A stretch of DNA of 62,384 nt from a virus: positions 1 through 62,384 of the IMG/VR virus record IMGVR_UViG_3300022542_000881; one strand, given 5' to 3'. The position numbers and the translations under genes were made by a program. Shown here in pieces: positions 1 to 62,384 of the stretch. Numbering within the stretch: position 1 is the stretch's first letter; each line of letters begins with the position of its first letter. The notes under the pieces were generated by a model. That model was not told the DNA's origin. It saw nothing but the letters and a program-made list of their open reading frames with translations, and ran no database searches.

Positions 1-141
1 AGTTCTTTTTCAAAATTCATGTTAAGAAACTCTATTCCTTACAAGGACCATTATACCGCAAGGAAAATACTAATCTTATCAGGTGCACCATCAGAAGTGG
101 TATCTAAGCCATATATCTGACGTTCAAGGGCAATGGTCCTA
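1..141. repeat. Terminal redundancy, copy 1 (identical to 62244-62384); assembly overlap of a circular or permuted genome
   Basis: Read directly: bases 1-141 are the same string as 62244-62384. The repeat contains the terL start codon (20 / 62263) and the terS 3' end (51-141 / 62294-62384). Confidence 0.9.
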
Positions 142-11044: not shown

Positions 11045-11052
11045 GAGAAACA

Positions 11053-12660
11053 ATGGCACCAACAGCAGATATCCCAACAGAAATAATAAAAAAGTTTGCG
11101 GCCTTATACCAAAGTAATAGAATATCATATGGAAATTGGACTCCGAAGAATGGAAAGATGTTCACCACTAAGGAGGAATATACAGATAAGAACATAAAAA
11201 ATCATCTTTCAGGTATAATGGGCCTTGGATTGGTGGCCATAAACGATGATAATAAATGTTGGTGGGGGGCCATTGACATAGATAATCATTCAGGGGAAGA
11301 AATAAACATAAATAAGATAGCAAAAGCTATACATGACAAAGGTTTACCATTAATTGTATGTAAATCAAAATCAGGTGGCGCACATTGTTATCTATTTGGA
11401 TCCGAGCCTCTACCTGCTCATTTTGTAAGATCGATATTAAATAAATGGGCAACTGATCTGGGATTCCAGGGATCTGAGGTTTTTCCAAAACAATCAAGGT
11501 TGGTAAAAAAGCAATTAGGAAACTGGATAAATTTACCCTACTTTAAGAGCGAACAAAGATTGGCACATGAATTTGATAAAGGAGATATCAAGACACTTTC
11601 CTTAACTGAATTTATGGATAAGGCCATGATAAGTCGGGTCGATCAATCGCTCTTAGAAGATTTTATGTTAGTTGAACACAGGGAAGCCCCACCCTGTATA
11701 CAACAAATGATGAAAAACGGGGTAGATTCCGGGCATAGGAACGAAGGCTTGTATAACTTATCAGTTTACCTTAGAAAATCCCACCCTGATGATTACAAAG
11801 AACGTGCATTCGACATCAATCAAACAATTTTCGAAAAACCCCTCTCCTTTGCAGAAGCCAAAAAGACAATAAACTCAGTTAGCGGCAATAGAGATTACCG
11901 ATATAAGTGCCTAGAGGAACCTTGTAGATCATTCTGTGATTCTGAGGTATGTTTAAAACGAGAATACGGGATAACCAGTGATGAAGTCGGCTTTCTATCG
12001 AGAGCGGACATGCCTGAGATTACTGGTTTAAAGATATATGATATGGAACCCCCTATCTGGGAAATGAAACTCAATGGCACTACAGTAGCAATAACTACCT
12101 CACAGTTTTATAACTTTCAGGAATTTGCCAAGGTGGTAATGGAGAAGTTGTTAATAGTTGTCCCGCCGATGAAAAATAAGGATTGGATTAACGTTCTTGC
12201 AGGGTTGATGTCAGTAGCCGAAAGGGTGGAAACACCTGAGGACGCCAGTACACCAGGTATCATAAAGGAGAAGCTCAGGGAATTTATCTACAAGGCTGAT
12301 CTAAAGAGCAATGGCAGGGATGTGAATGATCGTGCAATGATCCGAAGAGGGATGCCAGTTGTACAGGAGGTAGGAGTTGGTGGTATTGCAGGTAGACACG
12401 TAGTATTCCGTGGTGGGGATTTCGTTGCCTTTCTAAAACGTACCAGATCTGAGGAATTAAAAGGTTCCATGTTATGGAATGCCTTGCGTACATTCGGGGT
12501 AACGCATACACGTCTAAGGGTAGAAGGAAGAGTGGCGGCGGTATGGGTAGTTCCAGTAGATGAACATGGTAGAACAAAACTTGATCCTGATTATAATGAC
12601 GAGAAACCTCCGGAAAAGCAGAAGGAGGAAAAAGGATTTCAATTTAAATCAGAGTTCTAA
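11053..12660 (+). CDS. Archaeo-eukaryotic-type primase-polymerase (PrimPol) with PriCT-like domain
   Basis: 535 aa. AIDIDNH (DxD), SKSGGAHCYLF (sGxxH), then PPCIQQMMKNGVDSGHRNEGLYNLSVYLRK, which resembles primase C-terminal (PriCT) domains. Confidence 0.7.
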   Translation: MAPTADIPTEIIKKFAALYQSNRISYGNWTPKNGKMFTTKEEYTDKNIKNHLSGIMGLGLVAINDDNKCWWGAIDIDNHSGEEININKIAKAIHDKGLPLIVCKSKSGGAHCYLFGSEPLPAHFVRSILNKWATDLGFQGSEVFPKQSRLVKKQLGNWINLPYFKSEQRLAHEFDKGDIKTLSLTEFMDKAMISRVDQSLLEDFMLVEHREAPPCIQQMMKNGVDSGHRNEGLYNLSVYLRKSHPDDYKERAFDINQTIFEKPLSFAEAKKTINSVSGNRDYRYKCLEEPCRSFCDSEVCLKREYGITSDEVGFLSRADMPEITGLKIYDMEPPIWEMKLNGTTVAITTSQFYNFQEFAKVVMEKLLIVVPPMKNKDWINVLAGLMSVAERVETPEDASTPGIIKEKLREFIYKADLKSNGRDVNDRAMIRRGMPVVQEVGVGGIAGRHVVFRGGDFVAFLKRTRSEELKGSMLWNALRTFGVTHTRLRVEGRVAAVWVVPVDEHGRTKLDPDYNDEKPPEKQKEEKGFQFKSEF

Positions 12661-18183: not shown

Positions 18184-18344
18184 TGGGTGAAATGGCAGAT
18201 TTTGTACTTGATTGTGCAATGGATGAAGATGAACACTATGATAGATTCAAAGATGCCCCATTCAGTGAACAATATGAAGAGGGTATAATAGATGAAAATG
18301 GTGTATCTATAGGAAACCCAACCTTTATACCAGAGGAAAAATGA
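18183..18344 (+). CDS. Small acidic protein
   Basis: 53 aa (MGEMADFVLDCAMDEDEHYDRF...). TAATG and ATGA overlaps on both sides. Below the ORF-track cutoff. Confidence 0.45.
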   Translation: MGEMADFVLDCAMDEDEHYDRFKDAPFSEQYEEGIIDENGVSIGNPTFIPEEK

Positions 18345-18922
18345 CCAGTTATGACAGTTGCGATAATTGTGGATGTACTATAATCATATGTAATCAAACT
18401 TGGAGGGATGAAAAAGATGATTTATGCCCTTCCTGTAAGGAGAAAAGAAAATCAATGCAAATGTATATTGGAACAAAAATTATTCATGCACGGCCAATGA
18501 CTCTTGGCCATTATAACACCCATCGTGGATGGGAAATTCCTAAAGATAAAGACCCAATGAAGGATGGATTCTTGGTGGAATATGGTGACGGTTATCAGTC
18601 ATGGTCCCCGGCGGAGGCCTTCAAATCCTACCGCCCCACCAATGGTATGAATTTTGGCCTTGCTATTGAAGCGGTTAAAATGGGGCATAAAGTTGAACGT
18701 GCCGGTTGGAATGGTAAGGGTATCAATATTTTTCTTGTTGACGAAGCAACAGGGTTTAAAAGAGTTGGCCATGATGGTGAAAATTGTGATGTCAGATTGC
18801 AAGAGCATATTGTTATCGACACTACCGGTCTTCAGACTAATAATCCCGATGCCCCTAAAAGCATTATCCCTTGGTTAGCTTCCCAGACTGATATGCTGGC
18901 TGATGATTGGGTAATAATATAA
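18341..18922 (+). CDS. Zinc-ribbon / unknown domain / DUF2829 (Tad2-like) fusion protein
   Basis: 193 aa. The C-terminal ~90 aa read MNFGLAIEAVKMGHKVERAGWNGKG...PWLASQTDMLADDWVII, matching the DUF2829 hallmarks FGxAIEAxKxGxKVxRxGWNGKG and PWxxSQxDxLAxDW. The N-terminus has CDNCGC...CPSC. Confidence 0.65.
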   Translation: MTSYDSCDNCGCTIIICNQTWRDEKDDLCPSCKEKRKSMQMYIGTKIIHARPMTLGHYNTHRGWEIPKDKDPMKDGFLVEYGDGYQSWSPAEAFKSYRPTNGMNFGLAIEAVKMGHKVERAGWNGKGINIFLVDEATGFKRVGHDGENCDVRLQEHIVIDTTGLQTNNPDAPKSIIPWLASQTDMLADDWVII

Positions 18923-21869: not shown

Positions 21870-22063
21870 TGTATTGTAATGGATGTAAAAATTTAGACCC
21901 TCAGGAAGAAGACCAAACTGATGAAAAAGAACCTCATATGTATAAACTATGGGGTATACGGGTACTTCATTTTGATAAGCATCCTTTAATAATAGTACCT
22001 ACTAATGGTCCATGTAATCATTATGATATGAGGGAGGGATATGAAAACATCATACTTTGCTAA
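21866..22063 (+). CDS. Hypothetical Cys-containing small protein
   Basis: 65 aa. ATGA overlap with the helicase stop. Confidence 0.5.
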   Translation: MMYCNGCKNLDPQEEDQTDEKEPHMYKLWGIRVLHFDKHPLIIVPTNGPCNHYDMREGYENIILC

Positions 22064-22382
22064 ATATAAAGAAAATGATGGTATAAGCATTGCCATAAGT
22101 TCCCCTTATTGGTTTAAAGGTTCATTATATCCTGCCCTATACCCAAAATGGACATTCCTTTCCAGATACCTTAGGAGTAAAAAAACTAAGGAAGATCAAA
22201 AGATATATATTAAAGAGTATTATACTCAAGTATTATCAAAATTAGACCCAGAAAGAGTACTTAAAGATTTAGATAACAGGGTGCTATTATGTTGGGAAAA
22301 AAAGGGAGACTTCTGCCATAGGAGATTGGTTGCCTATTGGATAGAAGAGTCTATACTAGGGGCGGAGGTACCAGAGATATGA
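22041..22382 (+). CDS. DUF488-like protein
   Basis: 113 aa. MKTSYFAKY...LLCWEKKGDFCHRRLVAYWI resembles the DUF488 signature (C..CHR..LA.WL). Confidence 0.5.
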   Translation: MKTSYFAKYKENDGISIAISSPYWFKGSLYPALYPKWTFLSRYLRSKKTKEDQKIYIKEYYTQVLSKLDPERVLKDLDNRVLLCWEKKGDFCHRRLVAYWIEESILGAEVPEI

Positions 22383-22618
22383 AATCAATACAAGAAAGAT
22401 ATTTAAATGATCCTGTATTTCATAATTTAGTGGTTATGATGGTATCGCATATTGATGCCGGTAAATTTACCCCATCAGAAATGAGAGATGCCGCTGTATA
22501 TGCATCTACTTTATATGAAATAAATAATGTAAAAGATTTTATTATACCGGATAATGTGGAGAAATCCTTTGATATCATAAGTGATTATATAAAGAGGAGG
22601 GGTAATGATATTCCCTAA
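22379..22618 (+). CDS. Hypothetical protein
   Basis: 79 aa from the ATG overlapping the upstream stop (ATGA). Confidence 0.5.
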   Translation: MKSIQERYLNDPVFHNLVVMMVSHIDAGKFTPSEMRDAAVYASTLYEINNVKDFIIPDNVEKSFDIISDYIKRRGNDIP

Positions 22619-24431
22619 CCTTACATTATTTGATAAATTTACATTGGACACAGAAACAACTGGTTTAAACTGGAGGCATGATAAAATATTCGGGTTTTCA
22701 ATTTCCACCCCCGATGGGGAAGATTATTATTGGGATGTGAGAGAAGAACCAAAAGCATTGCTATGGTTGGATAATGAATTAAAGGGATTTCGTGGTGATT
22801 TAATAAATCATAACCTTAAATATGATATACATTTCCTGAGGGAAGCGGGTATTAATGTTCTTAATGGTAAATATCCAGGAATTAATTGGGATTGCACCAT
22901 GATCAGAGCGGCCTTGATCGATGAACATAGATTTACTTATAATCTTGATGATGTAGCTAAAGATTATATTGGTCTTGGCAAAATTGATCCTTATCAGGAA
23001 TTAGCTGATATGTTCGGTGGAAAACCAACCCGACATGCCCAATTGAAAAATTTACATCTTGCCCCAAGAAGTTTAGTTGATCCCTACGCAAAAAGAGATA
23101 CTCGTGCAACATTAGAATTATGGGAAGCTCAGGAAAAGATAATAAATAAAGTAAACATGCATCAAGTATGTGGTCTAGAACGTGATGTAATGTATCCTGT
23201 ACAGGATATGGAAAGGAGGGGGGTACGTGTTGATATCGATGCCGCTGAACAAAAAGTATATGAACTCGACAGAATCGTTGACAGAGAAAGAACAGAACTT
23301 GATAAAATTGCTGGATTCCCTATCAATCCAAATCCATCCGGAAGCATTCACAGATTGTTTAACCCTAAGCAGAATAAGCATGGTACATGGATCGCTTGTG
23401 ATGGAACACATCTTGGAAGTACAAAAAAAGGAAAAGCGTCTATTGATGCAGAAGCATTAAGGAATATGAAACATCCTGCGGCAGAGAAAATATTAACCGT
23501 AAGACAGTTAATGAAGTGCCGGGACACTTTTATACAAGGGCATATATTAAATTCAGAAGAGAATGGAAGAGTTTACCCTAATATAAATCAATGTAAATCT
23601 GATGCAGGTGGTACCGTTACGGGCAGATTATCTATTACTAAACCCCCTCTACAAGCTATACCAAAAAGGGATAAAAAAACGGCATCTATGGTACGACCAT
23701 TGTTTATACCAGAGGAAGGTCAGCAATGGTATAGAGCAGATTATTCTCAGGCAGATGCAAGGGGTTTCACTCATTATACACAATCCCCGCCATTGTTAGC
23801 GGCTTATGAAAAAGACCCCCGTACCGATTTTCATGGTTTGGTGGCCTCTCTCACTAACCTTCCTCGCTCTGCCCCCTACAGTGGTGGGGCTAATGCTAAG
23901 CAGTTGGGCTTAGGTCTTTTGTTCTCGATGGGTGAGGGTAGGATGGCGTGTGAAATGGGTTTACCTTATACAACAGAAGTAAGAGGAAAAAGGGAATGGT
24001 TGAAACCGGGGCCGGAGGCAACTGAGATATTTACTAATTTCCATATACAGATACCAGGAGTAAAAGAATTCTCAAAAAAGGCAACTTCCGTAGCCAAAAC
24101 CAGAGGGTATATAATATCATTAATGGGTAGACATATGCACTTCCCCCATGGGCATTATGCTTATAAAGCGGCAGGATATCTCTTCCAGAGTGCCACTGCT
24201 GAGTTTAATAAAGTAAAAATGGTAGACACCTACAACATGATAGAGAACACAGATACAGAGATATTATTATCTGTACATGATGAGTTGAATTTTTCCTCCA
24301 ATGATCCGGATCTCATGGAAGAGGTACAAGAAGAAATGGAAGATTTCCATTCTGACCATGCCAGGATAAAATTAAGAGTACCGATGGTAGCTGATATGAA
24401 AAGTGGTAATAATTGGTGGGAGGCAAATTAA
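22605..24431 (+). CDS. Family A DNA polymerase with 3'-5' exonuclease domain (DpoZ candidate by genomic context)
   Basis: 608 aa. Exo motifs DTETTGL, HNLKYD, YAKRDTRATLEL. Pol motif A RADYSQADARG, motif B ANAKQLGLGLLFSMG, motif C LSVHDEL. Confidence 0.85.
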   Translation: MIFPNLTLFDKFTLDTETTGLNWRHDKIFGFSISTPDGEDYYWDVREEPKALLWLDNELKGFRGDLINHNLKYDIHFLREAGINVLNGKYPGINWDCTMIRAALIDEHRFTYNLDDVAKDYIGLGKIDPYQELADMFGGKPTRHAQLKNLHLAPRSLVDPYAKRDTRATLELWEAQEKIINKVNMHQVCGLERDVMYPVQDMERRGVRVDIDAAEQKVYELDRIVDRERTELDKIAGFPINPNPSGSIHRLFNPKQNKHGTWIACDGTHLGSTKKGKASIDAEALRNMKHPAAEKILTVRQLMKCRDTFIQGHILNSEENGRVYPNINQCKSDAGGTVTGRLSITKPPLQAIPKRDKKTASMVRPLFIPEEGQQWYRADYSQADARGFTHYTQSPPLLAAYEKDPRTDFHGLVASLTNLPRSAPYSGGANAKQLGLGLLFSMGEGRMACEMGLPYTTEVRGKREWLKPGPEATEIFTNFHIQIPGVKEFSKKATSVAKTRGYIISLMGRHMHFPHGHYAYKAAGYLFQSATAEFNKVKMVDTYNMIENTDTEILLSVHDELNFSSNDPDLMEEVQEEMEDFHSDHARIKLRVPMVADMKSGNNWWEAN

Positions 24432-24733
24432 TGGATACGGATAAATTACAGACACCGGTTACAGAAATTGAATTAGTTGAATTTATGCACTGCGAAAATA
24501 TGTTACCTGCAGGTAGAGATATTTTAAGTAGGCTAGCTTTTCAACGGGATTTATTACTAAAAGAAAAAGCTAATAATTGGGCTAGTAGTGATAACCAAAT
24601 TGTAATTGCCTCGGGCATATTATGGGGCCATGATCTCTTGGAAGAATCAGAGAAATTGTTATATATAGCAAAGATTTGCAATTGTTGTGATTGTAAAGAA
24701 TATAGAACAGGACTTCCAACAGAGGTAAAATAA
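24431..24733 (+). CDS. Hypothetical protein
   Basis: 100 aa. TAATG overlap with the polymerase stop. Confidence 0.55.
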   Translation: MDTDKLQTPVTEIELVEFMHCENMLPAGRDILSRLAFQRDLLLKEKANNWASSDNQIVIASGILWGHDLLEESEKLLYIAKICNCCDCKEYRTGLPTEVK

Positions 24734-24912
24734 TGGATTGCGTAGAAAGAGCAAAATTAAGCGGATGTCAGGTTTTTTGTTGCGACTGTTTTTGGGGAGG
24801 ATTTGAAAGTGAACTTGTTTTTGAAAAATTAAATGAAGATTGGATATGTCCCCAATGTGGGAATTCAGAAGTAGAAAAGGATATAAAAAAGGAGGATTGT
24901 GATGGCGGCTAA
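24733..24912 (+). CDS. Zinc-ribbon small protein
   Basis: 59 aa (MDCVERAKLSGCQVFCCDCFWGG...CPQCGN). TAATG overlap. Below the ORF-track cutoff. Confidence 0.45.
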   Translation: MDCVERAKLSGCQVFCCDCFWGGFESELVFEKLNEDWICPQCGNSEVEKDIKKEDCDGG

Positions 24913-25219
24913 TTATTGTGAAAAGAAGATATATGATATCGGTGAAATAAAATGTACAATATTAGATGTCATGAAGGAAGCAAAAATATCCAAGAGCGGG
25001 GCGTATCAACGATTATTAAAATTTATGCAGGGTAAGATATCTGCATCTGATGTTTTTTGTATAAATGGATTTAGAAAGCCAGGGAATCCATTAAATAAAG
25101 CGGAATGGGGTGATTTAACAAATACAGATAGAAGTGGGGATTTGGATAATATGCCAAGTCCTACAAAATATGATGAAGAATTGAGGTTACAACCGATGTT
25201 CACATCATCACATGAATAA
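24902..25219 (+). CDS. Hypothetical protein with a possible HTH
   Basis: 105 aa from the ATG behind AAGGAGGATTGTG. ISKSGAYQRLLKF is HTH-like. Confidence 0.5.
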   Translation: MAANYCEKKIYDIGEIKCTILDVMKEAKISKSGAYQRLLKFMQGKISASDVFCINGFRKPGNPLNKAEWGDLTNTDRSGDLDNMPSPTKYDEELRLQPMFTSSHE

Positions 25220-25353
25220 AAATACGGCGTAGATCCTTCGTCACACAAAACCCCTTCTTTTATCATTTTCCAGGGGTTAGTGTCCTCGGTTTGCTTATGT
25301 TGTTGATTGCTCAACGCACCGGAATAAGTAAAGGATCATGAGAATCATCATTT

Positions 25354-25384
25354 ATTTCCTGGGGGTATAATACCCCCAGGAAAT
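25354..25384. other. Perfect palindrome (12-bp stem, 7-nt loop TATAATA); terminator or operator candidate
   Basis: ATTTCCTGGGGG-TATAATA-CCCCCAGGAAAT, read directly. It lies in the 223-nt gap before the nucleotide-modification operon. Confidence 0.45.
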
Positions 25385-25442
25385 ATCTTATAAAGAGAAA
25401 TAATAAAGAAGAAGCTATATTACATAGATTAGCTGTAGAACA

Positions 25443-25829
25443 ATGTTTAAATTGGGGGTCGGTATGGAACAATTATTAGCAGAGTTTAAAAAGAACGCAA
25501 AATTACATTGGGGATATATAGAATCTTTATTAGAAAAACATTACCCCGATGAGGATACTATATGTCTTATGAAAGAGGATTTTTTTAATATCATAGGATT
25601 TCATTACAGAACAGCCATGGAGCATGGATATAAACATGCATTACAGGATATGGGGTATGATGAAGAAGAAGACGCAAAAATTCCTGATTGGCAAAAAAAT
25701 TTAATACCAAAATTAAAGACAGGTGAGGACGTATCAGCTGAGGAAATGAATAATATACATAGCCCAATCAAGGGACCCCCATTCAAATGGGATGAAGTAA
25801 CTATAAATTCAATAAAATCTAATATTTAA
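25443..25829 (+). CDS. Hypothetical protein
   Basis: 128 aa. An alternative start at 25464 has a better SD. Confidence 0.55.
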   Translation: MFKLGVGMEQLLAEFKKNAKLHWGYIESLLEKHYPDEDTICLMKEDFFNIIGFHYRTAMEHGYKHALQDMGYDEEEDAKIPDWQKNLIPKLKTGEDVSAEEMNNIHSPIKGPPFKWDEVTINSIKSNI

Positions 25830-25838
25830 GGAGGACAC

Positions 25839-26852
25839 ATGAATCCAATAGTAGATATTATCTATGGGGGGCAATATGGATCAGAGGCTAAGAGACTTTT
25901 TATCGAGTATTACGTTAATAAGTATAAGCCGGATGCTATTGTATCTAACTTTGGGCCTAATAGCGGTGGTTTCGTATCTGATGGCGGTAAATGGGCTACT
26001 TTTGCAATGGGGTTTGACGGATTGCATCTTCTTTCTTCCGGATCGATAATCAATTATGGTGATTTTATCAAAGAACATAGAAGATTACCAGAAGGAGCTA
26101 GAGTACTTGTACATAAAAACGCTTGTATTGTTACGCCCAAGGCTATCGAGAATGAAAAACGTTTAGTAAAAATTGGGAGTACTATGACCGGAACTATGGC
26201 CGCAGTAAATATTAAGATGGCTAGAAATCTTAATAATCAAAATTTAGCATGTGTACTTCCCGGAATAAGAAGATATTCGGTTAGTAATGATATGTGGAAT
26301 GAGACGATTAGAAAGATGAAAAGGATTCTTCTTGTAGTGCCTCAGGGTCATAGTCTATCATTAAATTTCGGATTCCATCCATATTGTACAAGCAGGAACA
26401 CTTCCCCCCAACAGGGTTTAGCTGATGCCGGGATTCCTATTCAATGGGTAAACCGAATAATTGGTTGTTTTCGTACCTTCCCGATCCGGGTTGCAAATAG
26501 ATATGATGAATTGGGTAACATGATTGGTTACTCCGGTGGTTGTTACCCTGATCAGAGGGAGATGACATGGGATGAAGTTGGTCAGTCGCCTGAATATACC
26601 AGCGTCAGTAATAATATACGTAGGGTATTTTCATTTAGCATGAATCAGTTTATTGAATCATGTCGGATGAATGGTTGTACTGATGTCTTTATGAATTTTC
26701 TTAATTATCTTCAACCGAAGTACCAAAATATGTTCCTAAAAGACATAAGCCATAATCTTATTAAAAATGAGGGGATATTTGCTAAGTTATCATATTTTGG
26801 TTATGGTCCAACAATAAACGACATAAACAATAGTAATAGGTGGGGTATATGA
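25839..26852 (+). CDS. purZ: Adenylosuccinate synthetase (PurA)-fold enzyme, PurZ-like (divergent)
   Basis: 337 aa. AAGGAGGACAC then ATG. Segments colinear with E. coli PurA:
- IIYGGQYGSEAKRL vs VLGTQWGDEGKGK
- IGSTMTGTMAAV vs IGTTGRGIGPAY
- PQGHSLSLNFGFHPYCTSRNTS vs [22 protein letters not shown]
- CFRTFPIRV vs AYSTRVGAG
It is coupled to MazG-like and HD genes. Confidence 0.6.
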   Translation: MNPIVDIIYGGQYGSEAKRLFIEYYVNKYKPDAIVSNFGPNSGGFVSDGGKWATFAMGFDGLHLLSSGSIINYGDFIKEHRRLPEGARVLVHKNACIVTPKAIENEKRLVKIGSTMTGTMAAVNIKMARNLNNQNLACVLPGIRRYSVSNDMWNETIRKMKRILLVVPQGHSLSLNFGFHPYCTSRNTSPQQGLADAGIPIQWVNRIIGCFRTFPIRVANRYDELGNMIGYSGGCYPDQREMTWDEVGQSPEYTSVSNNIRRVFSFSMNQFIESCRMNGCTDVFMNFLNYLQPKYQNMFLKDISHNLIKNEGIFAKLSYFGYGPTINDINNSNRWGI

Positions 26853-27190
26853 TAAAGGGAATTGAAATAGATTTAGATGATCCTGTAACTTTAAAAGCGG
26901 CAGGCCTATGGGGAACTATTGCTCAATTAGAAATTCTTCAAGAGGAATGTGGGGAAGCAATTGAATTGTTGGTGATAGCGTTATCAAAAACTATAGCTAA
27001 AACCTCTAGATTCAAGAGAAATAGGATCACAAAAGGAGAGATAGCAGAGGAAATAGCCGATGTATTAGTGTGTATGAAATCGGTGATACCTGCTCTCAAT
27101 ATTGCAGATGAAGTTGTCCAGTTTATGGAATGTAAAACTGAAAGATTAAAATTAAGAATAGAATCCATAGAGAAGGGGGGTATAACATGA
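26849..27190 (+). CDS. mazZ: MazG-like nucleoside triphosphate pyrophosphohydrolase (MazZ-like)
   Basis: 113 aa. LQEECGEAIE (ExxE) and EEIADVLVC (EExxD) motifs of the all-alpha NTP-PPase fold. ATGA overlap with the purA-like gene. Confidence 0.6.
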   Translation: MIKGIEIDLDDPVTLKAAGLWGTIAQLEILQEECGEAIELLVIALSKTIAKTSRFKRNRITKGEIAEEIADVLVCMKSVIPALNIADEVVQFMECKTERLKLRIESIEKGGIT

Positions 27191-27774
27191 GTAGATTATC
27201 CATACAAGATATAGCCCGTGCCGCTCATGTTGACAGATGGCAGATAATACGTACTCTCCGCCAACAAAACATTGCAGAGCATCAGTACATGGTTACCATG
27301 ATAGCACTTGAAATTGCTGAAAGGGTAATAACTAATAATGATTTTACCCCGGATAATAGGATAATACTAATGGATTGGTGTCTTAGGCATGATCTTCCAG
27401 AAGTATATATGGGTGATATTTGTACTCCTGTAAAATTACGAATAAAAGCGGCATGTGATGAAGATATTTTTTCTAAGATAGAAGAAGAAATATGTGATAT
27501 ATGCCATCAATCACGGCTCAGGGTAACTGGTACTGTATATGAAGGTATAACTAAATTGGCAGATCTCATAGATGGTATCAGATTTCTTACTACGGAGGGG
27601 AGCGGTAAACATGCTGAATTTGCCCTTAATAAGATAAAAGGTATGTATAAAGAACGTTTATACCACCTGAGTAAGGAGTATACCAAATATCGATGGACCG
27701 AAGTAAGTAAAATTCTAACCACTATGTTATACGATGAATGTGGATTCATAGGATTTGAGGGTCCGATAAAATGA
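27187..27774 (+). CDS. datZ: HD-domain phosphohydrolase, YfbR-like (DatZ-like dATPase candidate)
   Basis: 195 aa. VDRWQIIRTLRQQNIAEHQYMV aligns to [22 protein letters not shown] of YfbR. RHDLPEVYMGDICTPVK aligns to YHDASEVLTGDLPTPVK. ATGA overlap upstream. Confidence 0.6.
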   Translation: MSRLSIQDIARAAHVDRWQIIRTLRQQNIAEHQYMVTMIALEIAERVITNNDFTPDNRIILMDWCLRHDLPEVYMGDICTPVKLRIKAACDEDIFSKIEEEICDICHQSRLRVTGTVYEGITKLADLIDGIRFLTTEGSGKHAEFALNKIKGMYKERLYHLSKEYTKYRWTEVSKILTTMLYDECGFIGFEGPIK

Positions 27775-27962
27775 AAAATAAAGTAGTTGAGTATATTGGG
27801 AATGAATTGTTACATCATCTTTTAGAAGTTGATCAAGAAGCTATAAAATTAAGAAAATACCCTGATTTTGGTGATCCAACTGAAAGTGGTGGTCTTGATA
27901 TAGCTGTCCTAAGAGAAAGACTAGAGAAAGCTATTAAATTAACAGAACTTCTGGTAAAATGA
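27771..27962 (+). CDS. Hypothetical helical protein, last gene of the coupled operon
   Basis: 63 aa. ATGA overlap with the HD gene. Confidence 0.5.
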   Translation: MKNKVVEYIGNELLHHLLEVDQEAIKLRKYPDFGDPTESGGLDIAVLRERLEKAIKLTELLVK

Positions 27963-28151
27963 GTAAAAAAGCGTATTATAAGATGTTATCATTTTTTATT
28001 TTTATATTGAGCATACTGGCTGTCAGTATGTTCCTGCTGTCTTTCTGATACCACGGAAAGGCTTTAGAGGGCCTTCTCCCTGGACTCGCCCTTACAACTG
28101 GTCGGGTACCAGAGAAGCATTAGCCCTACAAACATAGTCAAGGAGAATACA

Positions 28152-28427
28152 ATGAGTTATGGTAACGATTGCGAAGCACAGGCAATAAGTAGCACACCAA
28201 GGAAACCATGTAAATCTGATATTGAAGAGCAGATGAAACGGGTAGTGTTAGCGGCAAAAGTCGATAAAAACCTGTTGGATGCTATTAAAGCTTTTACAGC
28301 ACATAACGGGGAACATGCTTTTGAAACTTTGGGATTGGATAAGGTTCTTGGCAGAGTGTATATAAACCATAAGAAAATCATAAAACGGATTGAAAATCTC
28401 GAAAAACAACTGGAGATCGTAGAATAA
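28152..28427 (+). CDS. Hypothetical protein
   Basis: 91 aa. AAGGAGAATACA then ATG. Confidence 0.6.
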   Translation: MSYGNDCEAQAISSTPRKPCKSDIEEQMKRVVLAAKVDKNLLDAIKAFTAHNGEHAFETLGLDKVLGRVYINHKKIIKRIENLEKQLEIVE

Positions 28428-28716
28428 TGGGGAATTGGGCCGATATACCAGAGTATAAAGGATATTATCAAGCATCCAAGGGAGGTAAAATTAAAAATAT
28501 GGCACACAAGTAGAAAATGAAAAAATGAAGATGTTAGCTGGTAATGGACCTCAAGGGACCGGGAATCATTTTACTAAACTAACTGAAATCGATGTTATAA
28601 AAATTAGATTATTATTAAAAGATAATCCAATAAAAACTAGAATTGCTGAGAAATTTAATGTTTGTTTAACAACCATCAGTAATATAGAATCTAAAAAAAC
28701 TTGGTCCCATATATGA
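28427..28716 (+). pseudogene. Decayed HNH-family homing endonuclease (NUMOD4-like N-terminus plus C-terminal HTH; nuclease core missing)
   Basis: A 28-aa ORF (28427-28513) reads MGNWADIPEYKGYYQASKGGKIKN, like the N-terminus of the intact HEG at 56864-57379 (IWKNIPGYEEKYQVSNKGRVRS). The 63-aa ORF 28525-28716 ends ...TTISNIESKKTWSHI, like ...PTINRIKNNKTWAWV. No HNH core lies between them. Confidence 0.55.
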
Positions 28717-28782
28717 GGTGATATTATTAAATTCTTATGGTTTGACACGGAAACCACCGGTACTGATGCCTTAAAAAATGGT

Positions 28783-29331
28783 ATGATACAGATAGCCGGT
28801 ATTGTGGTTATCGGTGGAGTTGAAAAGGCTCGGTTTGATTTAAGATGCAATGTACACCCAGATGATGCAATTGAGCAAGAGGCACTTGATGTGAATGGTA
28901 TAACCCGTGAGCAAATAGCGGAGTATCCTAATCCAAAAGAAGTGTATTGGGCATTACAATCCATGTTTTGTAAGCATATTGATAGGTTTAATAAAGAAGA
29001 TAAATTCTTTGCCGCAGGTCAAAATGTAAAATTTGATGTTGATTTTTTACATAACCACTTTCTCAAACATGGTAAACCACACCCAAAGCAGGAATGTACT
29101 GGTGATCCTTTCCTTTTCTCTTTTATTCATGGTGCCACCTTCGATACTATGAATTTAGCCATGATGTATGAAATGAGAAAGGGATACAAGGTTTTTAGTC
29201 CAAACTATAAGCTTGAAACCATTTGTAAAACTCTTGGTGTTAAGCTTGAAAAAGCCCATGATGCATTGGCCGATATAGAGGCTACCAGGAAAGCGGCAAA
29301 CATTATGTGGGCATTTATTACAGGAAAATAA
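28783..29331 (+). CDS. DEDD (DnaQ-like) 3'-5' exonuclease; the first ATG lies downstream of the ExoI motif
   Basis: 182 aa from the ATG. ExoIII HDALADIEAT and ExoII-like NVKFDVDFL. The in-frame upstream sequence (28717-28782) encodes ...FLWFDTETTGTDALKNG, the ExoI motif, but contains no ATG, GTG or TTG. Confidence 0.7.
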   Translation: MIQIAGIVVIGGVEKARFDLRCNVHPDDAIEQEALDVNGITREQIAEYPNPKEVYWALQSMFCKHIDRFNKEDKFFAAGQNVKFDVDFLHNHFLKHGKPHPKQECTGDPFLFSFIHGATFDTMNLAMMYEMRKGYKVFSPNYKLETICKTLGVKLEKAHDALADIEATRKAANIMWAFITGK

Positions 29332-29332
29332 T

Positions 29333-29590
29333 ATGCTGGATTTTAATTTACTAAAAGCATGTATGGAACAATTACTTCAAGGGGATGCAGAAACGCTCCC
29401 CATGAAGGATTATTACCTTACTGGATGTACTCTTATAATTGATTTAAGTATAAGAGATAATATAAAAATAATTGTAGAAAGGAAGGGAGTGAAAATTTCG
29501 GAAATGGAATGTGGTAATATACTTGCTTCCAGTAATATAACTTTGGAGGGCCTTGATATCAGATTCAAGGTAGATTTAAAAAGTGGCTAA
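29333..29590 (+). CDS. Hypothetical protein
   Basis: 85 aa ORF abutting its neighbours. Confidence 0.5.
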   Translation: MLDFNLLKACMEQLLQGDAETLPMKDYYLTGCTLIIDLSIRDNIKIIVERKGVKISEMECGNILASSNITLEGLDIRFKVDLKSG

Positions 29591-30005
29591 AGAAAAACAG
29601 TTATGGGATAAGATAAAAGGGCAGTTAGGTAACGCCTGGGACGCTCAGAGGCATGAAGACGAGTTCTCCGTGGGCATCCCGGACGTGTCCTACGGGGCGG
29701 CGGGTATCAACGGGTGGATAGAGCTTAAAAGGCTAGAACGGTACCCGAAAAACCCGCAAACGGTAATAAAAATAAAACACTTTACCGGGGTCCAAAAAAA
29801 TTGGCTATATGAAAGACAACAAAAGGGTGGACACTGTTGGTTATTGCTTCAAATTGCCGATGATTATTATCTTTTTAAAGGGGATCGATGCGATAAAGTG
29901 GGATCATATTTAAATAAAGAAGGATTAGAAAGAAATGCCCATTCTATATATTCAAATAATAAGGATATATCCCTTGGGGCATGGTTGTGGAAGAATATAA
30001 TATAA
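29583..30005 (+). CDS. PD-(D/E)xK nuclease, VRR-NUC / Holliday-junction-resolvase-like
   Basis: 140 aa (GTG start). GIPDVSY...GWIELKR gives the D...ExK catalytic pattern. Last gene of the plus-strand arm. Confidence 0.55.
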   Translation: MAKEKQLWDKIKGQLGNAWDAQRHEDEFSVGIPDVSYGAAGINGWIELKRLERYPKNPQTVIKIKHFTGVQKNWLYERQQKGGHCWLLLQIADDYYLFKGDRCDKVGSYLNKEGLERNAHSIYSNNKDISLGAWLWKNII

Positions 30006-30322: not shown

Positions 30323-30808
30323 TTAAATTACTATTCCATTTACACTACATTCTGCTCCGGCTATCTGCATTATATCCACGAATAATGCCGGATGTATCTT
30401 TGCAGGATCAATTATCCATCTTTTTTTAATAACAACTGGAGTTACTGCTATCTCAGAACAAAACATCTTATTCTTACGATCTTTCGTCTTAAAGACAAAA
30501 GCAATAATACCGGCCCAATCATAAGGGATTTTTTCCGCCGCCGCTTTTTCATAATATGATATACAATAATCATAAATTTCTTCGGAAACGGATAATTCCC
30601 ATATTTCATATTTCGTACCGGGGGTATGTGCTGACCAATCACTCCAATCTGTCCAGGACTTTATACCCCCTTTATGAGGCCATGCTTCTATTAATCTTTC
30701 ATTTGGCATCAATATAGCAATATGGGAATATCCTTTCGATCTGGTCCAAAATCGAATAGCCTTTGATACAAGAGACTTACCTCTAAAAGCAACAAATTTT
30801 AAAATCAT
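30323..30808 (-). CDS. Papain-fold (NlpC/P60 or YiiX-like permuted) peptidase, cell-wall hydrolase candidate
   Basis: 161 aa. GYSHIAIL...EAW and MFCSEIA give a His/Cys arrangement resembling permuted papain-like amidases. Located in the lysis cassette. Confidence 0.45.
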   Translation of the reverse strand: MILKFVAFRGKSLVSKAIRFWTRSKGYSHIAILMPNERLIEAWPHKGGIKSWTDWSDWSAHTPGTKYEIWELSVSEEIYDYCISYYEKAAAEKIPYDWAGIIAFVFKTKDRKNKMFCSEIAVTPVVIKKRWIIDPAKIHPALFVDIMQIAGAECSVNGIVI

Positions 30809-36450: not shown

Positions 36451-36479
36451 ATTAAAACACAAAAACAGCCCCGTGTCAA
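36451..36479 (-). promoter_or_regulatory. Sigma70-type promoter internal to the late arm
   Basis: Minus strand reads TTGACA (36479-36474), 17-nt spacer ending TGTGT, TTTAAT (36456-36451). The TGA stop of the 2419-aa gene lies inside the -35 box. Confidence 0.55.
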
Positions 36480-39400
36480 GGGGTTTTAACCAAACGTGAT
36501 CTACTTTTGAATTTCTTTTTATACCATTTAGAAGCTTCATTCAACTTTCTTCTTTCTTCCTTGGTTAAAGTCTTATAAAATTTAGATCTTATGTCCTTAG
36601 GCAAACCACCCGTTGGTTCTGATAATTTAAGAGATATTTTTTTACCCCTAATAGAACCGCCAAGATCATAATATCTTTCTAAATGTTTACCGGCCAAATC
36701 TAAATCACTGAATCTAAGGGATTGCTTGTAGTAATACAAAGCCTTTGATTTAGTACTCGGGATATGTGATGGTCTTTCTCCTTTTTCTTCTTTTACAAAA
36801 TCATTAACCTTTTTCCTTATTTGAAAATATGCTGCTTCCCCTGGGTCAACATTGTACCATAATCTAGATGTAAAATCCCCCTGCATACCCCTAGTAGGGA
36901 TACCCATAGCCCTTCTGGTTATAAGTTCTAAAGAGAATGTTCTAAAGATATGATCCCATTTATTATAAATTGGACGTGGATTCCATATATCGGGATAAAA
37001 ACTCTTACCCGCAAGTGCTTCACCCGTAGTTTTAACTATAGGTCGTGCGCCCCCTACTAATCTGTTACTAAATGAAGATCCGGCCTCAACTACTTTTTTC
37101 ATGGGACCTATTTCTCCACTTGCAACATCGGCGATATCATATTCAAGATCTTCACCACCAAACCAACCAAGTGCATCACGGAAAGCACCTGATATTGGTA
37201 AATACCTAACACTTCCATCCGGATTTCTACCCAAGAGTATGTGCATCTTACGTCTTTGATCAGGTGTTAAATCTCTTTCTTCATCTCCAAAGAAAGTAAA
37301 ATTCCACAGGGCTATTGTAGCAGAGAATGCCATAAATCTACCTGCAATACCAGTAGCCTTCTTTGCAGTCTGCCATGATATAGTTTTTGCAATACTCTTA
37401 CTATCCCTTCCTTCAGCCTTTGCATTGGCCATCATTCGGTAATACCTGGGAGCATTGATCTCCATCCAGGAATAAAATGGTATAAGGTTATTACGAATAT
37501 AATCACCAGTTTCAGTAAGTCTACCATAATCACCCAATAATTCACGAGATAACTTTGCCGCTTTCTCGATAGGATCTACGATATCATCAATATCTGCAGG
37601 ATTTGAGGCACCATATATTGCTTTTTCTCCTGACTCTATTCTATCCCTAAAATAACGGAATGCGGCAAGTCTAAGAGTGTTCTCCCTCATGTTGTTTAAG
37701 GCCCTGGTATTATCCATCCACCATGCAAAGGGTCTAGTTACCTTATTAATCGCCCCTGGCTTTGGACCTTCCATTATAGCCCTAAAATCAGAATCTATGT
37801 CCTGTACTTCATGGAGCACAAAACCAGATCCTATAACATCATGTTCATAAGCCAATTTCAGTTCTTCATGTAATTCTGGGGATACACCTTTTGCCCCCTT
37901 CTCTGATGAAAATGCTTTAGCTCCTATATTTTTAGTATCTGCCCTAACATCAGAGAATGCTTGTCTCGTATACTTCATTATACGGTGATCATAAGCAACC
38001 ACGGCATCCAAGTCACCGGACATATTATTTGTTGAATATCTAAAGAATCGAAAGGGATTCATCAATGTCCATTTCTTCCAGGTATTAATAAAACTTCTAC
38101 TTATACCTTCCAATCCACCTGTTTCGGCAACAGGGACTTGTAATTTCTTAAGTGTATCAGCAACTTCATTTGGTACTATCCATGTTTCATCAGGACGCCT
38201 AACAGTACCAAGTATTAAATCATCAAAGGTTATTTTTTCATTCTCAAGTATCTTTTTAATGGTTTTCTCAGGAACAGTATGTATCATACCCCAATTCATA
38301 TTAGGATCTGGTTTAAATACTGAAAATCCTGGGGTTTCTTTTAATGTTGCTTGCCAATCTACTTTACCAAGACCCCATTTATCGGCTTCGGCTTTTGCTT
38401 TAGCTACAACACTTGGGAAGATATCATATTTTCTCCTTATATCCATCTTTATTTTCTTAGCCGCAATAGCTTCATGAGCCTGTGAAAGCATCTCATATTC
38501 AGATGACAAATATTCGGTATTATAATCCTCAAGGCTACCCTGTCGGGCTTTAAATGATGATTTTCTTTGGTTTCTTACAGATTGTTGCTGATTAAACATT
38601 ATAAATGTATCTTCCCTTGCCATATGTTCAAGTACCTGATGATGAAAATAATTCTGATCAGTAAGTACTCTTTCAGGGAGAAGACCTAAATCAACTAACT
38701 CTTCCTGTACTATCTTTAATTGTGAACGACGGGTAGCTAAAGCTTTCATTAATCTTGGGGATTTCCTAGCTTGTCCCTGAAAATGCCTTAAACTATCTTT
38801 TACTTCCGCTATCGTATTAAAGTTAAAGGGTAACCATCCATCATCAAGTAACGATTCACCATTTTTATCTAATTGGGCATCCCTAAGAATATCAGTCAAC
38901 ACTAATACTCTACTGAATACCTCACGCTCAGCAGTATCAAGACCTTTTACATTAGTATATACTGTATCCCATGCCTTATATGCACCCTGCCGGGATGTAT
39001 TTTTAAGTAGACGTAACCAATTTTTTAATTGACCAAATTTTCCAGGCCTTAACTCTGCATGAGCACTGGTGGATTTTTTAAATATTTCATCAGCCTTACG
39101 TTTAACTCTATCCATCCATGTATCTGGATTAAGTTTAGCAGAAATCATCCTACTTTCAACATCGGGATTGGGATCTTTAACATCAAGACCATATGCATTA
39201 TCTTTACGAGAGAATTTAAATACGGGTTTCTCTGCTTCCTGTTCATTGATTTCATCTTCTATTGCAGATATCTTATTCTCTATTGCAAGGCTTTTACCCT
39301 CATTCTCTGTAGTAGTTAATTCATCATAAAGGGCTTCCAATTGTTCCTCAAGATTAACTTCATCTTCCGGACGACCAAGACTATCCCTTATTGTACTATT

Positions 39401-42400
39401 TATATCAGCCATTTGTTCTTCTACTAATTCCTCAAGTTCTTTTTTCCTGGCCTTTTTGGGTATAAATCGTGGTTTAGAATCTTCCTTCTCCCCCTCAACA
39501 GGACTAGTAGCAGTAGCCGCGCTTTTAACCATTACTGGTTTAAATCCAGGAACCTTTTCTTTTACTTCCATGGAGATATTTATAGAATCATTAACTGATA
39601 ATCCTTCTAATTCTCCCTCTACTATTTGTCTTTCCGCTTGTTCACGAAGTAGTCTTATTCTATTTGATAAAGACTCTATCTTTTTGGTGGCTCTAGCAGA
39701 ATTTAATTTTCGTAAGTCTTTAATATGATTAATAGTTGATACAACATCTTGTATAGTTTTATTATATTCCTCCAATCCTTGGGGTATTTCCTTTGGCCCA
39801 GGTCCTTTTTCCAAGTCAAGGAATACTTGAGTAACTTTCAACTTAGGCTTGGGCTTCTTCTTGGCTGTCGGGGCGGCGGGGGCCTCAGGTACCGGAGCGG
39901 CTGTCGGCGGCGTAGGAGCGGCAACGGGAAGCGCAACCTCGGCCTGCTCAGGCGTCAGACCCTGCTCGGCTAGCCGGGCCTTAGCATCAAGGTCTACTTT
40001 AGCTTCCAATTCCTCTGCTTCTTTTTCCCGTTTATCATACTCTTCTTGAGCATCTTTAGATATTTGTTCAGGGGTCCTCCCTGTCATTTCTATTAGATCA
40101 GTTTCAAGTTGATCAGTTTCCTTATGTAATATATCAACTACCCTGGCATCTTTTCTATGACGAGTACGAACACCATCATCCTCCATCATCTGGATTCTGC
40201 CCCTTAGCATATCAATTCTTTCGGGATCAGTTTCTTCCCTTAGTCTAGTTTTAATATATATATAATCATCATACTCTTCAAGACTATCAAAAGCATTTTC
40301 ACGGAAACTATCAACTCTATTAAGGACAAATGCTAATCTATGTAATTTATCAGCTATTGGATCTGTAGTAGGTTCTTCTACCTCTACACCGGCCTCTTTT
40401 TCGGATGCATAGAAATAATCAACATTAGCTCTGGCCTGTTGCATTTGATATTCTGCCTCAGTCGCCAATTCATCTGCAGTAGCTATATCACCCTCGTCAG
40501 CTTTTTCCCTTACAAGAGTATCAAATTTATTCTTAGCCTCATCATAGGCGGTTTTAGCTTCAATGGCTACATTAGGATCTATAGTACCACCGGCATCAAC
40601 TATTCTTTTTGTTTCTGCATCGGCATCAATTTCAGGTCTTTCTATTAATCCCCTAGATTCTGCTATAGCGGCATCAAATACGTCTTTAAGATCCCTAGTT
40701 ATATTACGAAGTTCTACCATCTTGGCAAAATCAACATCAGATTCAGATTCTTTATATCTACGTTTTACTTCACGATATTGTTTACGTGCGGATTTCCATT
40801 CCTTCTCTGCTTCTTTTACAAAACCAGGCATCATTTGTACTTGACCCCTGATTCTCATAGAAACATCTGCAGTTGGTAATATAGTAATATCTGGCTCTTT
40901 TCCTTCAATCACTCTTATATGACTTATAACAGCCCCGCCTTTCACCCCACCCCTATTCATACTAGATTGTGGGAAGAAATATGAATTATTACCCATACCA
41001 GTAAATAACATTCTTTCTACAAAAAATGGATGGGAATCTCCAGTACCGATGGCAATTACCTTTTTCTTTGCGTCCCTGGCATATGAAAGTAATTGGATAA
41101 GAGCTTTCGTAAATTCAGTTTCATCAGGTTCATATGCATATCTATCGATATATATGGCATTCTCATCTTCCCTTATACCTATAGATGCACCCTCACCAAC
41201 GATAAAGTTAGAATACCTATCACCTATCTTATCTATCGTGGTAGCTTCAATACCAAGTTTAGATTGCATATGTTCAACAGCACCTATTTCCCCTATATAG
41301 GCACGGGTTACATTAGTAAGAGTAGATTGTAAATTATCTATATTGTTAAAAAAATCTTTTGAAATAATATCATTACCAATAACATTCTTATTACTGATAA
41401 TTTTATCTATAATTTCTTTAAGTGCCGATAACACTTTCTCAAAATGAGTGGGGTCTGAGGAATGTAAATTATCCCAAAATTTCATTGAATTGAACTGATC
41501 TCCAACGAAATCAGCCAACATTTCCTCTTCTACTGCTACAGTTGCGGCTCCTTGACCCTCTCTCTTATAGGCATCCCTTAATTTTTGTTCATATTTAGAT
41601 TTAGCTTCCTTACTCATACCCTCTTGGGCTACGGTCATTAAAGTATTAAAAGCATCAGGATCGCTATTTTTTAAGGAATGTGTAAACTCGTGACCGAGAA
41701 CCCATTGAGCAGTTTTATCATTATTTTCGTTCATAAACAGAACATTAGGATTGGCAGGAGAAAACCCACCATTTATAGGCATAGCACCTTCATTGTTTTC
41801 TCTAAATCGTACTATCCTTACCCCAAATAAAGTTGCTATAGCATCTGCAACATGATCTTGTTCTGAACGTTTTTCACTTATAGTTATATCACTTTCGCTA
41901 TAAACGTTGGAATCTTTTGATTGAGTATTAACACCTTCCTGTAACTCAGAAACCAATTGTACATCAGCGATATCTTCTACAGGTACTTCTCCAGGAGCTA
42001 ATTCCTTAGGGGGTATTCTTTTTATGGGTTCTTCTGCTTTAGGTATCTCACCAGTTTTATTTATTTCATCTATGAATTTTGAATCTTCTTTATCCTTGAT
42101 ATCATCGGATATATCTTTAATTTCTTCTGTGGTGAATTCCTTTTTATCAGCCTTGTCCCATTGTTCCTTGGTAAGAGTACCCTGCCTAAGTGCTAGCATT
42201 ATCTTTGGTTTATCTGGTTCAGCTAATTTAACAGAATCCCCAAATGCAGCCTTCTCTAATTCGGATGCATCATCTTCAATTTTCTTTGCTTCGACCTGTT
42301 CCCTTAATTGTATGAGTAGTCCATCTCTTTGGGTATTAAGATCTTCCAATTGCGCTTGTGCGGCAACATCATCAGGTTTTCTTTTAAGATGGACTTCAAG

Positions 42401-62263: not shown

Positions 62264-62384
62264 GTTAAGAAACTCTATTCCTTACAAGGACCATTATACC
62301 GCAAGGAAAATACTAATCTTATCAGGTGCACCATCAGAAGTGGTATCTAAGCCATATATCTGACGTTCAAGGGCAATGGTCCTA
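62244..62384. repeat. Terminal redundancy, copy 2
   Basis: Identical to 1-141. Confidence 0.9.

Follow-up and report, generated by a model that had tools for sequence, protein, structure and literature searches.

Introduction

The virus record IMGVR_UViG_3300022542_000881 of IMG/VR, analysed here over its full length of 62,384 nucleotides (hereafter the window), raises the question of whether three overlapping genes at positions 25,839 to 27,774, together with a DNA polymerase gene nearby, equip a phage to build its DNA with 2-aminoadenine (Z) in place of adenine. An earlier note on the same DNA had read the trio as a PurZ/MazZ/DatZ module, that is, an enzyme with the adenylosuccinate-synthetase fold, a MazG-type pyrophosphohydrolase and a YfbR-like HD phosphohydrolase, and had predicted a Z-containing genome. 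Since 2021 both the existence of Z-genome phages and their PurZ/MazZ/DatZ/DpoZ pathway have been established, and known purZ phages now number in the hundreds. Moreover, the PurZ/MazZ/DatZ cluster of phage S-2L suffices to put Z into the DNA of E. coli (PMC8342488).

Here we report that the Z system of the window is of this known kind and that what is new lies in two of its parts: a PurZ clade with a rewired active site that the curated PurZ model misses, and a non-orthologous MazG-type protein in the MazZ slot. We consider it likely that the window carries the full module for Z DNA; the presence of Z in the virion DNA of this uncultured phage is a prediction. The core of the reading given in the earlier note is supported by the matches to PurZ, DatZ and DpoZ, by synteny and by palindrome frequencies, so that the evidence consists of homology, conserved residues, gene order and genome composition, from which we infer all of the enzyme activities.

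Results

The PurZ-like protein

The product of the first gene (25839-26852) is predicted to be a PurZ-type enzyme and not a cellular-type PurA, an assignment that is well supported. It matches phrog_1211, the PurZ family, with an E-value of 3.9e-52, and its sequence matches in the PDB are led by the PurZ proteins of phages phiVC8 (1e-46) and S-2L (2.5e-35), with PurZ0 (2.3e-15) and archaeal PurA (about 2.5e-11) giving weaker ones. An AlphaFold2 model of the protein (predicted local distance difference test, pLDDT, 92.6) has template modelling scores (TM-scores) of 0.88 to both PurZ structures (6tnh and 7odx), 0.81 to archaeal (Pyrococcus) PurA and 0.77 to PurZ0. The adenylosuccinate-synthetase fold that had been proposed was thus recovered, with the phiVC8 and S-2L PurZ structures as the best matches in both sequence and fold. 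PurA models score the protein far below the PurZ model, and it is 34-36% identical to the PurZ of cultured phages.

The residues that set the substrate preference agree with this assignment. S15, within the motif Q-Y-G-S-E-A-K-R, is aligned with S14 of phiVC8 PurZ and with Asp13 of E. coli PurA, and the replacement of this catalytic aspartate by serine is found in 100% of phage PurZ and PurZ0 proteins (PMC12884076). In phiVC8 PurZ dGMP's 2-amino group is accommodated by F12, S14 and T262, and the adenine of ATP is stacked on by F295 and Y298 (bioRxiv 10.1101/2025.10.22.683976). The corresponding dGMP pocket in the window protein consists of Y13 (a conservative change), S15 and T254, the stacking residues are kept as F287 and Y290, and W244, Y236, G248 and P215 match W252, Y244, G256 and P233 of phiVC8 PurZ.

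A PurZ subclade without the family histidine

Relatives of the window PurZ in a collection of 5.8 billion proteins fall into two tiers separated by a gap, the first comprising about 44 proteins that are 46-75% identical to it and the second consisting of ordinary PurZ at 41% identity or less. We aligned 124 sequences, namely 42 members of the first tier (the subclade; at least 300 amino acids (aa) each), 79 canonical PurZ, two PurZ0 (Wayne and Goodman) and E. coli PurA. In place of the family motifs G-x-x-G-K-G and N-A-G-H, the window protein shows G-S-E-A-K-R and N-S-G-G, and two residues are deleted; R19 thus replaces a P-loop glycine. The P-loop form G-S-[E/C]-x-K-R together with P-N-S-G-G-[F/Y] is present in 42 of 42 subclade sequences, whereas K-G and N-A-G-H are kept in 79 of 79 canonical PurZ, in both PurZ0 and in E. 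coli PurA. The lost histidine corresponds to His41 of E. coli PurA, and the glycine changed to arginine to its P-loop Gly17. Altogether 16 positions separate the subclade from canonical PurZ, and they cluster in the P-loop, in the shortened loop of the histidine and in the aspartate loop; in the aspartate-binding loop of the window protein, threonine is changed to serine at S255 and S257. The mean identity within the subclade is 58% and 75 alignment columns are invariant. Such strong conservation across 42 sequences indicates that selection is acting and rules out a pseudogene or a decaying enzyme.

In a neighbour-joining tree with 50 bootstraps, from which archaeal sequences were left out, the subclade was monophyletic in 50/50 replicates, and the subclade plus canonical (ATP-type) PurZ was separated from PurZ0 and PurA in 50/50 as well. 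The branch leading to the subclade is long (0.36), and the tree does not settle where within PurZ it is attached. Since the subclade sits inside the ATP-type PurZ group on a long branch, it is a derived lineage and not a deep one. The suggestion in the earlier note of a deep or novel branch therefore holds in part: the protein is 34-36% identical to cultured PurZ, and its branch is long but not basal. It is an atypical PurZ in that it lacks the histidine and scores below the curated PurZ cut-off (see Discussion). The comparison with cellular PurA that the note had called for places the window protein with PurZ. A PurZ0-like identity for the subclade was also considered, as both P-loops start with GSEAK, and was rejected (0/50 bootstraps, lower identity, and ATP-stacking F and Y residues kept).

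No subclade member was found among 50,697 GenBank phage records, in which all matches were below 36% identity, and the histidine-less subclade is not described in PMC12884076, PMC8342488 or bioRxiv 10.1101/2025.10.22.683976. Its members, at least 42 sequences, are confined to metagenome assemblies and metagenome-assembled genomes (MAGs). A scan of GTDB genomes with the single window PurZ gave no match. With the subclade alignment as query, three contigs were returned, from bins labelled Omnitrophota, Desulfobulbus sp. Tol-SR and a gammaproteobacterial MAG. As two of them are identical to viral contigs of IMG/VR, they appear to be of phage origin and are no dependable guide to a host.

The DatZ-like protein and the polymerase

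The third gene of the trio encodes an HD protein that is presumed, from its sequence, to be a dATP triphosphohydrolase. Its best PHROG is phrog_7076, 'dATP triphosphohydrolase' (2.6e-26; next family 1.6e-10), which is also the best PHROG for S-2L DatZ and for the protein in the DatZ slot of phiVC8. It is 31% identical to the latter, HD phosphohydrolase p25 (E-value 3e-21), and in the PDB it matches S-2L DatZ (6zpa, 1.3e-8) slightly ahead of YfbR (2paq, 1.7e-7). The residues named for S-2L DatZ are the metal ligands H34, H66, D67 and D119, the phosphate ligands R19, K81 and K116, the base and sugar gate W20, I22 and P79, and Q29, A32 and G74 (PMC8065100). In the window protein their counterparts are the metal ligands H32, H68, D69 and D126, the triphosphate ligands R17, K83 and K123, the gate W18, I20 and P81, and Q27, A30 and G76, and 13/13 of the named residues are kept. 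W18 and I20 correspond to the W20/I22 pair of S-2L DatZ, in which the tryptophan excludes ribose and the isoleucine excludes the purine 2-amino group sterically; the gate of E. coli YfbR is W-P-L. The YfbR-like HD and DatZ assignment made previously is supported by the phrog_7076 match and by the named residues, although in the PDB the lead of DatZ over YfbR is slight.

The PolA noted near the trio passes the DpoZ model. It scores 763.8 bits against NCBIfam NF038380 (phage_DpoZ_1), over the curated cut-off of 500 bits, and 26 bits against phage_DpoZ_2 (cut-off 350). It is 39% identical to phiVC8 DpoZ over the full length, and its match to that polymerase in the PDB (7pbk, 7.1e-134) is far stronger than the one to Taq (3.4e-27). 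The DpoZ subfamily is marked by insertions 1-3 and by L455, F459 and G548 (PMC8599892). When the window polymerase is aligned to phiVC8 DpoZ, insertions 1 (SDAGG for GEDGG) and 2 are ungapped, insertion 3 is present and 5 aa shorter, and the three residues are kept. The best 30 tblastn matches listed, at 41-46% identity, belong to phages of PurZ-encoding groups, SH-Ab 15497 and PMBT28 among them.

The MazG-type middle protein

The middle gene encodes a MazG-type protein that matches phrog_2245 (6.2e-14) and that Pfam assigns to MazG below threshold only. A word-indexed protein search returned one relative and an exhaustive HMMER search returned 49 sequences including the query; PF03819 (MazG) is matched by 31 of the 48 aligned members of this family, and E33, E36, E68, D71 and K96 are invariant in it. 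With hhalign the family is aligned to S-2L MazZ at 90% probability (E-value 1.6e-6), and E33, E36, E68, D71, K96 and R103 are then paired with the catalytic residues E35, E38, E50, D53, K76 and R83. The protein has no match to PF04447 (DUF550), which S-2L MazZ matches at 2e-11; BLASTP against S-2L MazZ gave an E-value of 0.18 over 7 residues only, and BLASTP against p26, the protein in the same slot of phiVC8, gave no alignment. In a profile search with the family, YpjD (4e-5) came ahead of S-2L MazZ (0.015). A structural model (pLDDT 88) has weak fold matches (E-values 0.03-0.4, TM-score about 0.5), all within the MazG superfamily. YpjD, E. coli MazG and DCTPP1 rank above S-2L MazZ in the profile and fold searches, and the 50 best fold matches do not include it. 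The earlier call of a MazG-type nucleotide pyrophosphohydrolase therefore stands on phrog_2245 and the catalytic residues, and its membership of MazZ, in view of the missing PF04447 match and the lack of similarity to p26, does not.

Operon layout and gene order in related loci

The three genes are coupled by ATGA overlaps at 26849 and 27187, exactly at the coordinates that had been claimed, and the same three starts appear in an independent gene call on a near-identical contig of the Joint Genome Institute (JGI). The motifs read previously were likewise all present, namely E32-E33-C-G-E36 and E67-E68-I-A-D71-V in the MazG-type protein and R17-W18, E31-H32, H68-D69 and G76-D77 in the HD protein. 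Promoter and terminator scans found no terminator-like site on the + strand within the trio; these scans did no better on the window than on shuffled sequence. A small open reading frame (ORF) follows datZ (Table 1); neither Pfam nor PHROG gave a match for it, the related loci hold no homologue, and it is probably outside the module core.

We compared the surroundings of a subclade purZ in 12 fetched loci (about 9 distinct phages; loci are given as L numbers). Eleven of them have a homologue of datZ and a gene for a DnaQ-type exonuclease no more than about 2 kb downstream of purZ, and in these 11 a DpoZ-like PolA gene is found upstream wherever that flank is present. The histidine-less PurZ thus appears, from gene order, to operate in complete Z clusters. 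The slot between purZ and datZ holds a MazG-type gene in the window, L005/L016, L012 and L020, and a PF18909 gene (dGTP_diPhyd_N, DUF5664) in L004, L006/L019/L021, L007, L017 and L018. For the DUF5664 proteins of Z phages, a dGTP/dATP pyrophosphohydrolase activity has been demonstrated (PMC12884076), and the finding that MazG-type and DUF5664 genes stand in for each other at this one place supports the view that they serve the same function. The exonuclease homologue comes directly after the datZ homologue in the same 11 loci (L004-L007, L012, L016-L021) and is absent from the fetched stretches of phiVC8, S-2L, Barton and VLCpiS6a; it may add a proofreading or nucleotide-salvage component to the Z module of this lineage.

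L003/L022 departs from this pattern. On this contig, which measures 135,678 bp (up to 229 kb) and was binned as Candidatus Omnitrophota, purZ adjoins a TROVE (Ro60-like) gene and no homologue of datZ, MazG or PolA lies within 10 kb of it. Its purZ product lacks the histidine as well and is 59% identical to that of the window, and the contig is very large, A+T-rich and phage-like. Either the pathway is arranged differently there or the enzyme is used differently.

Palindrome composition

Modified A:T pairs would leave only purely G/C restriction sites exposed. We therefore determined the observed to expected ratio (O/E) of 6-bp palindromes with a maximal-order Markov expectation. G/C-only palindromes are strongly and selectively depleted in the window, with an O/E of 0.14 (3 observed vs 22.0 expected, Poisson P = 5.7e-7) against 0.71, 0.94 and 0.88 for those containing 2, 4 and 6 A/T bases; the O/E of CGCG is 0.18. 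The G/C-only ratio is 0.00-0.15 in the relatives L004-L007, with the same pattern listed for L001, and 0.16 in a segment of 13 kb from the proven Z phage phiVC8. In two non-Z controls the ratios for G/C-only and 2-A/T palindromes were 0.81 vs 0.56 (T5 segment) and 0.39 vs 0.41 (SPP1), so that depletion there was no stronger for the G/C-only sites.

Genome context

Both ends of the window (1-141 and 62244-62384) form an exact direct overlap of 141 bp, indicating that the assembly is circular and that the genome, of 62,243 bp, is probably complete; it belongs to an uncultured tailed phage. A near-identical contig of 62,298 bp is present in JGI sample 3300022540. The G+C content is about 38%, no tRNA gene was found in the window, and megablast of positions 22000-30000 against GenBank phages gave zero matches at the DNA level. 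The + strand half carries replication genes (a thymidylate-synthase-like gene, an AEP primase, SNF2 and UvrD helicases, and DUF7307, Pam3_gp34, Tad2-like and PolA genes), and the terminase, portal and major head genes are on the - strand half. The features are collected in Table 1.

Table 1. Genes of the Z module and other annotated features of the window
Feature	Position	Strand	Evidence and remarks
Thymidylate-synthase-like protein, 221 aa, short	10379-11044	+	Best match methanogen-type TIGR03283, full length
AEP-type primase	11032-12660	+	phrog_21866 5.5e-125; PF22548 AEP-TOTE 5.4e-19; phage also encodes DpoZ polymerase
Protein with C-terminal Tad2-like (Thoeris anti-defence 2) domain	18341-18922	+	PF11195 1.4e-20
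DUF488-N3a domain protein	22041-22382	+	PF22751 2.5e-6, 28.2 bits, slightly over the 27-bit cut-off; just upstream of polymerase
DpoZ-type family A DNA polymerase with 3'-5' exonuclease domain, 608 aa	22605-24431	+	NF038380
PurZ-like gene, 337 aa, ATG start	25839-26852	+	AAGGAGG ribosome-binding site at 25828-25834
MazG-type gene, 113 aa from ATG	26849-27190	+	ATGA 26849-26852 overlaps stop of PurZ-like gene
DatZ-like HD gene, 195 aa	27187-27774	+	ATGA 27187-27190 overlaps stop of MazG-type gene
Small ORF, 63 aa	27771-27962	+	Coupled to datZ by ATGA overlap
DnaQ/RNase T-type 3'-5' exonuclease, 182 aa	28783-29331	+	PF00929 1.4e-14; phrog_192 1.1e-28
Enoyl-CoA hydratase / ClpP-like 'moron' protein	30323-30808	-	phrog_1128 2.9e-18; at junction of the two gene blocks
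2,419-aa ORF in structural module	36476-43735	-	No PHROG match at E <= 1e-5

The thymidylate-synthase-like protein scores 94 bits against TIGR03283, under its cut-off of 174.55 bits, and has the region of the catalytic cysteine (PPCL). It may be either a ThyA or a pyrimidine hydroxymethylase, which would make a second base modification conceivable. Homologues of the Tad2-like protein occur in L004 and L005. The giant ORF of the structural module presumably encodes a tail or fibre protein.

Discussion

By homology with the systems of S-2L, phiVC8 and SH-Ab 15497, the pathway would begin with the conversion of dGTP to dGMP, for which the MazG-type enzyme is the presumed supplier. The PurZ-like enzyme would then phosphorylate O6 of dGMP with ATP or dATP and condense the product with aspartate, yielding N6-succino-2-amino-dAMP, from which the PurB of the host would remove fumarate to give dZMP, and host kinases would raise this to dZTP; neither a purB nor a kinase gene turned up among the window genes. 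The DatZ-like HD enzyme would strip dATP to deoxyadenosine and in this way exclude A, and the DpoZ-type PolA would polymerise Z opposite T.

The locus is most easily placed by comparison with the Z systems already described. The Vibrio phage phiVC8 shares with the window PolA, purZ, a small all-alpha gene and an HD gene in the same order on one strand, with identities of 39% (DpoZ), 34% (PurZ) and 31% (HD/DatZ), and the two also have in common a Pam3_gp34-like gene and the depletion of G/C-only palindromes. However, p26 of phiVC8 is unrelated in sequence to the middle protein of the window, phiVC8 PurZ has GSTGKG and NAGH instead of GSEAKR and NSGG, and its genome is 39 kb and not 62 kb long. 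The cyanophage S-2L has the purZ, mazZ and datZ functions in the same order, and common to both are all catalytic and specificity residues of DatZ, the acidic tetrad of MazG and the equivalents of K76 and R83. In contrast, its MazZ belongs to PF04447/DUF550 and the middle protein of the window is PF03819-like and without Asp60, the identity of the PurZ proteins is only about 28-31%, and S-2L replicates by a PrimPol and not by DpoZ (PMC8065100), whereas the window has DpoZ and a separate AEP primase.

The closest cultured relatives of the polymerase (44-46%) are the group of Acinetobacter phage SH-Ab 15497 and Salmonella phage PMBT28, phages with PurZ, a DUF5664-DUF550 pyrophosphohydrolase, DatZ and DpoZ. 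The SH-Ab 15497 group also holds the closest cultured PurZ relatives (about 31-36%), PMBT28 not being among the PurZ matches listed. Like this group, L004, L006, L007, L017 and L018, which are related to the window phage, have DUF5664 in the middle slot, but the window itself has no DUF5664 or DUF550 domain and its PurZ is in the histidine-less subclade. The PurZ0 systems of Arthrobacter, Gordonia and Microbacterium phages have the serine at the catalytic aspartate and the P-loop start GSEAK as in the window. They differ in that PurZ0 keeps KG and NAGH and is about 26-30% identical to the window PurZ, and in that these phages use DutZ/DmtZ (PMC12884076) and another DpoZ family.

Several observations weigh against a functioning Z module. 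The genome of S-2L shows no depletion of G/C-only palindromes (O/E 1.00), and the palindrome signal is circumstantial, with small counts and two control phages. The window PurZ reaches 188 bits against NCBIfam NF038379 (amino_Aden_PurZ), which is its best family and scores phiVC8 PurZ at 397 bits and Wayne PurZ0 at 367, and thereby falls below the curated cut-off of 300 bits. About 300 bits are reached by only 20 of 53 aligned homologues, a total that fits 20 of 21 canonical and 0 of 32 subclade members, as judged from the total and not from scores of each member. G44 stands at the position of the catalytic histidine, His41 of PurA, which is the catalytic acid of the phosphotransfer step and essential for catalysis. 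The PurZ-like enzyme might have changed or lost its function, in which case succino-dZMP would be made inefficiently, the DNA would be partly substituted, or another purine nucleotide would be the product. The fixation of the changes from histidine to glycine and from glycine to arginine in 42/42 subclade members, their absence from the 79 canonical PurZ, the two PurZ0 and E. coli PurA, the score under the cut-off and the threonine to serine changes would fit such a loss. Nevertheless, we regard it as improbable: the subclade is so strongly conserved that it appears selected and not decaying, all residues of the dGMP and ATP pockets are retained, the paired changes look compensatory, and in about 9 phages the histidine-less PurZ is embedded in complete DpoZ/DatZ clusters, which would be pointless, and the depletion of dATP harmful, unless dZTP were made.

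The middle gene adds two further points to those just listed. As judged from its sequence, the MazG-type protein is PF03819-like and not an orthologue of a characterised MazZ, and the equivalent of Asp60 of S-2L MazZ, the residue that contacts the guanine 2-amino group (N2), is S78 here and glutamine in the family consensus. With this change, a preference of the protein for dGTP is suggested by the position of its gene only and not by its sequence. The enzyme might thus act on dATP, dUTP or a non-canonical nucleotide, with dGMP drawn from host pools, as would agree with the lack of orthology to MazZ-1 or to the small protein of phiVC8, with the dCTP- and dUTP-specific enzymes among its closest folds, and with the absence of the gene from many relatives. 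We consider this unlikely, though with a real chance of being true, given that the acidic tetrad and the equivalents of K76 and R83 are intact and that, where the gene is missing, the slot holds the PF18909 (DUF5664) protein whose dGTP/dATP activity was shown in Z phages (PMC12884076); that unrelated genes replace each other at a single position speaks for a common task. A wider doubt would make the genes ordinary parts of nucleotide-pool metabolism (an auxiliary metabolic gene of the PurA type, a MazG with a housekeeping role and a 5'-nucleotidase like YfbR, which would merely boost or clean the dNTP pool) in a phage with normal DNA. The HD protein does match YfbR (PF12917, 4.1e-13, besides 2paq), the MazG-type protein resembles generic MazG, YpjD and DCTPP1, and neither of them passes any curated NCBIfam model, NCBIfam having no DatZ model. 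Against this very remote prospect stand the serine at the catalytic aspartate of PurA, the low scores with PurA models, the DatZ-specific W-x-I pair and the phosphate-binding residues of the HD protein, the polymerase that passes the DpoZ model, and a gene order as in the proven Z phages phiVC8 and S-2L.

If the PurZ of the window makes succino-dZMP, as the Z-module reading implies, its active site would have to work without the histidine. The paired changes from histidine to glycine and from glycine to arginine look compensatory in the alignment, and we infer that R19 may take over the role of the catalytic histidine, supplying a positive charge or a proton relay at the gamma-phosphate, as His41 normally does. 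That the histidine-less PurZ phosphorylates dGMP in an ATP-dependent manner through a site rebuilt in this way, with R19 for the histidine and a shortened mobile loop, is a tentative proposal to which we give somewhat less than even weight.

The observations on this locus bear on how Z phages are recognised and on how their enzymes evolve. The cut-off of NF038379 would leave the subclade unnamed, so that Z phages are undercounted in surveys that depend on such thresholds. A selective scarcity of G/C-only palindromes may offer an inexpensive clue, from sequence alone, to genomes with modified A. The alternation of MazG-type and DUF5664 proteins in one slot is a further non-orthologous replacement at the dGMP step and extends the 'functional convergence' described for these systems (PMC12884076). 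The fixed pair of changes, histidine to glycine and glycine to arginine, is a testable case of active-site rewiring in a well-studied family. If the rebuilt site is real, nature would have arrived at another catalytic solution within the adenylosuccinate-synthetase superfamily, and the use of phosphate donors or the kinetics might differ from those of other PurZ enzymes, which would be useful for engineering Z-DNA synthesis.

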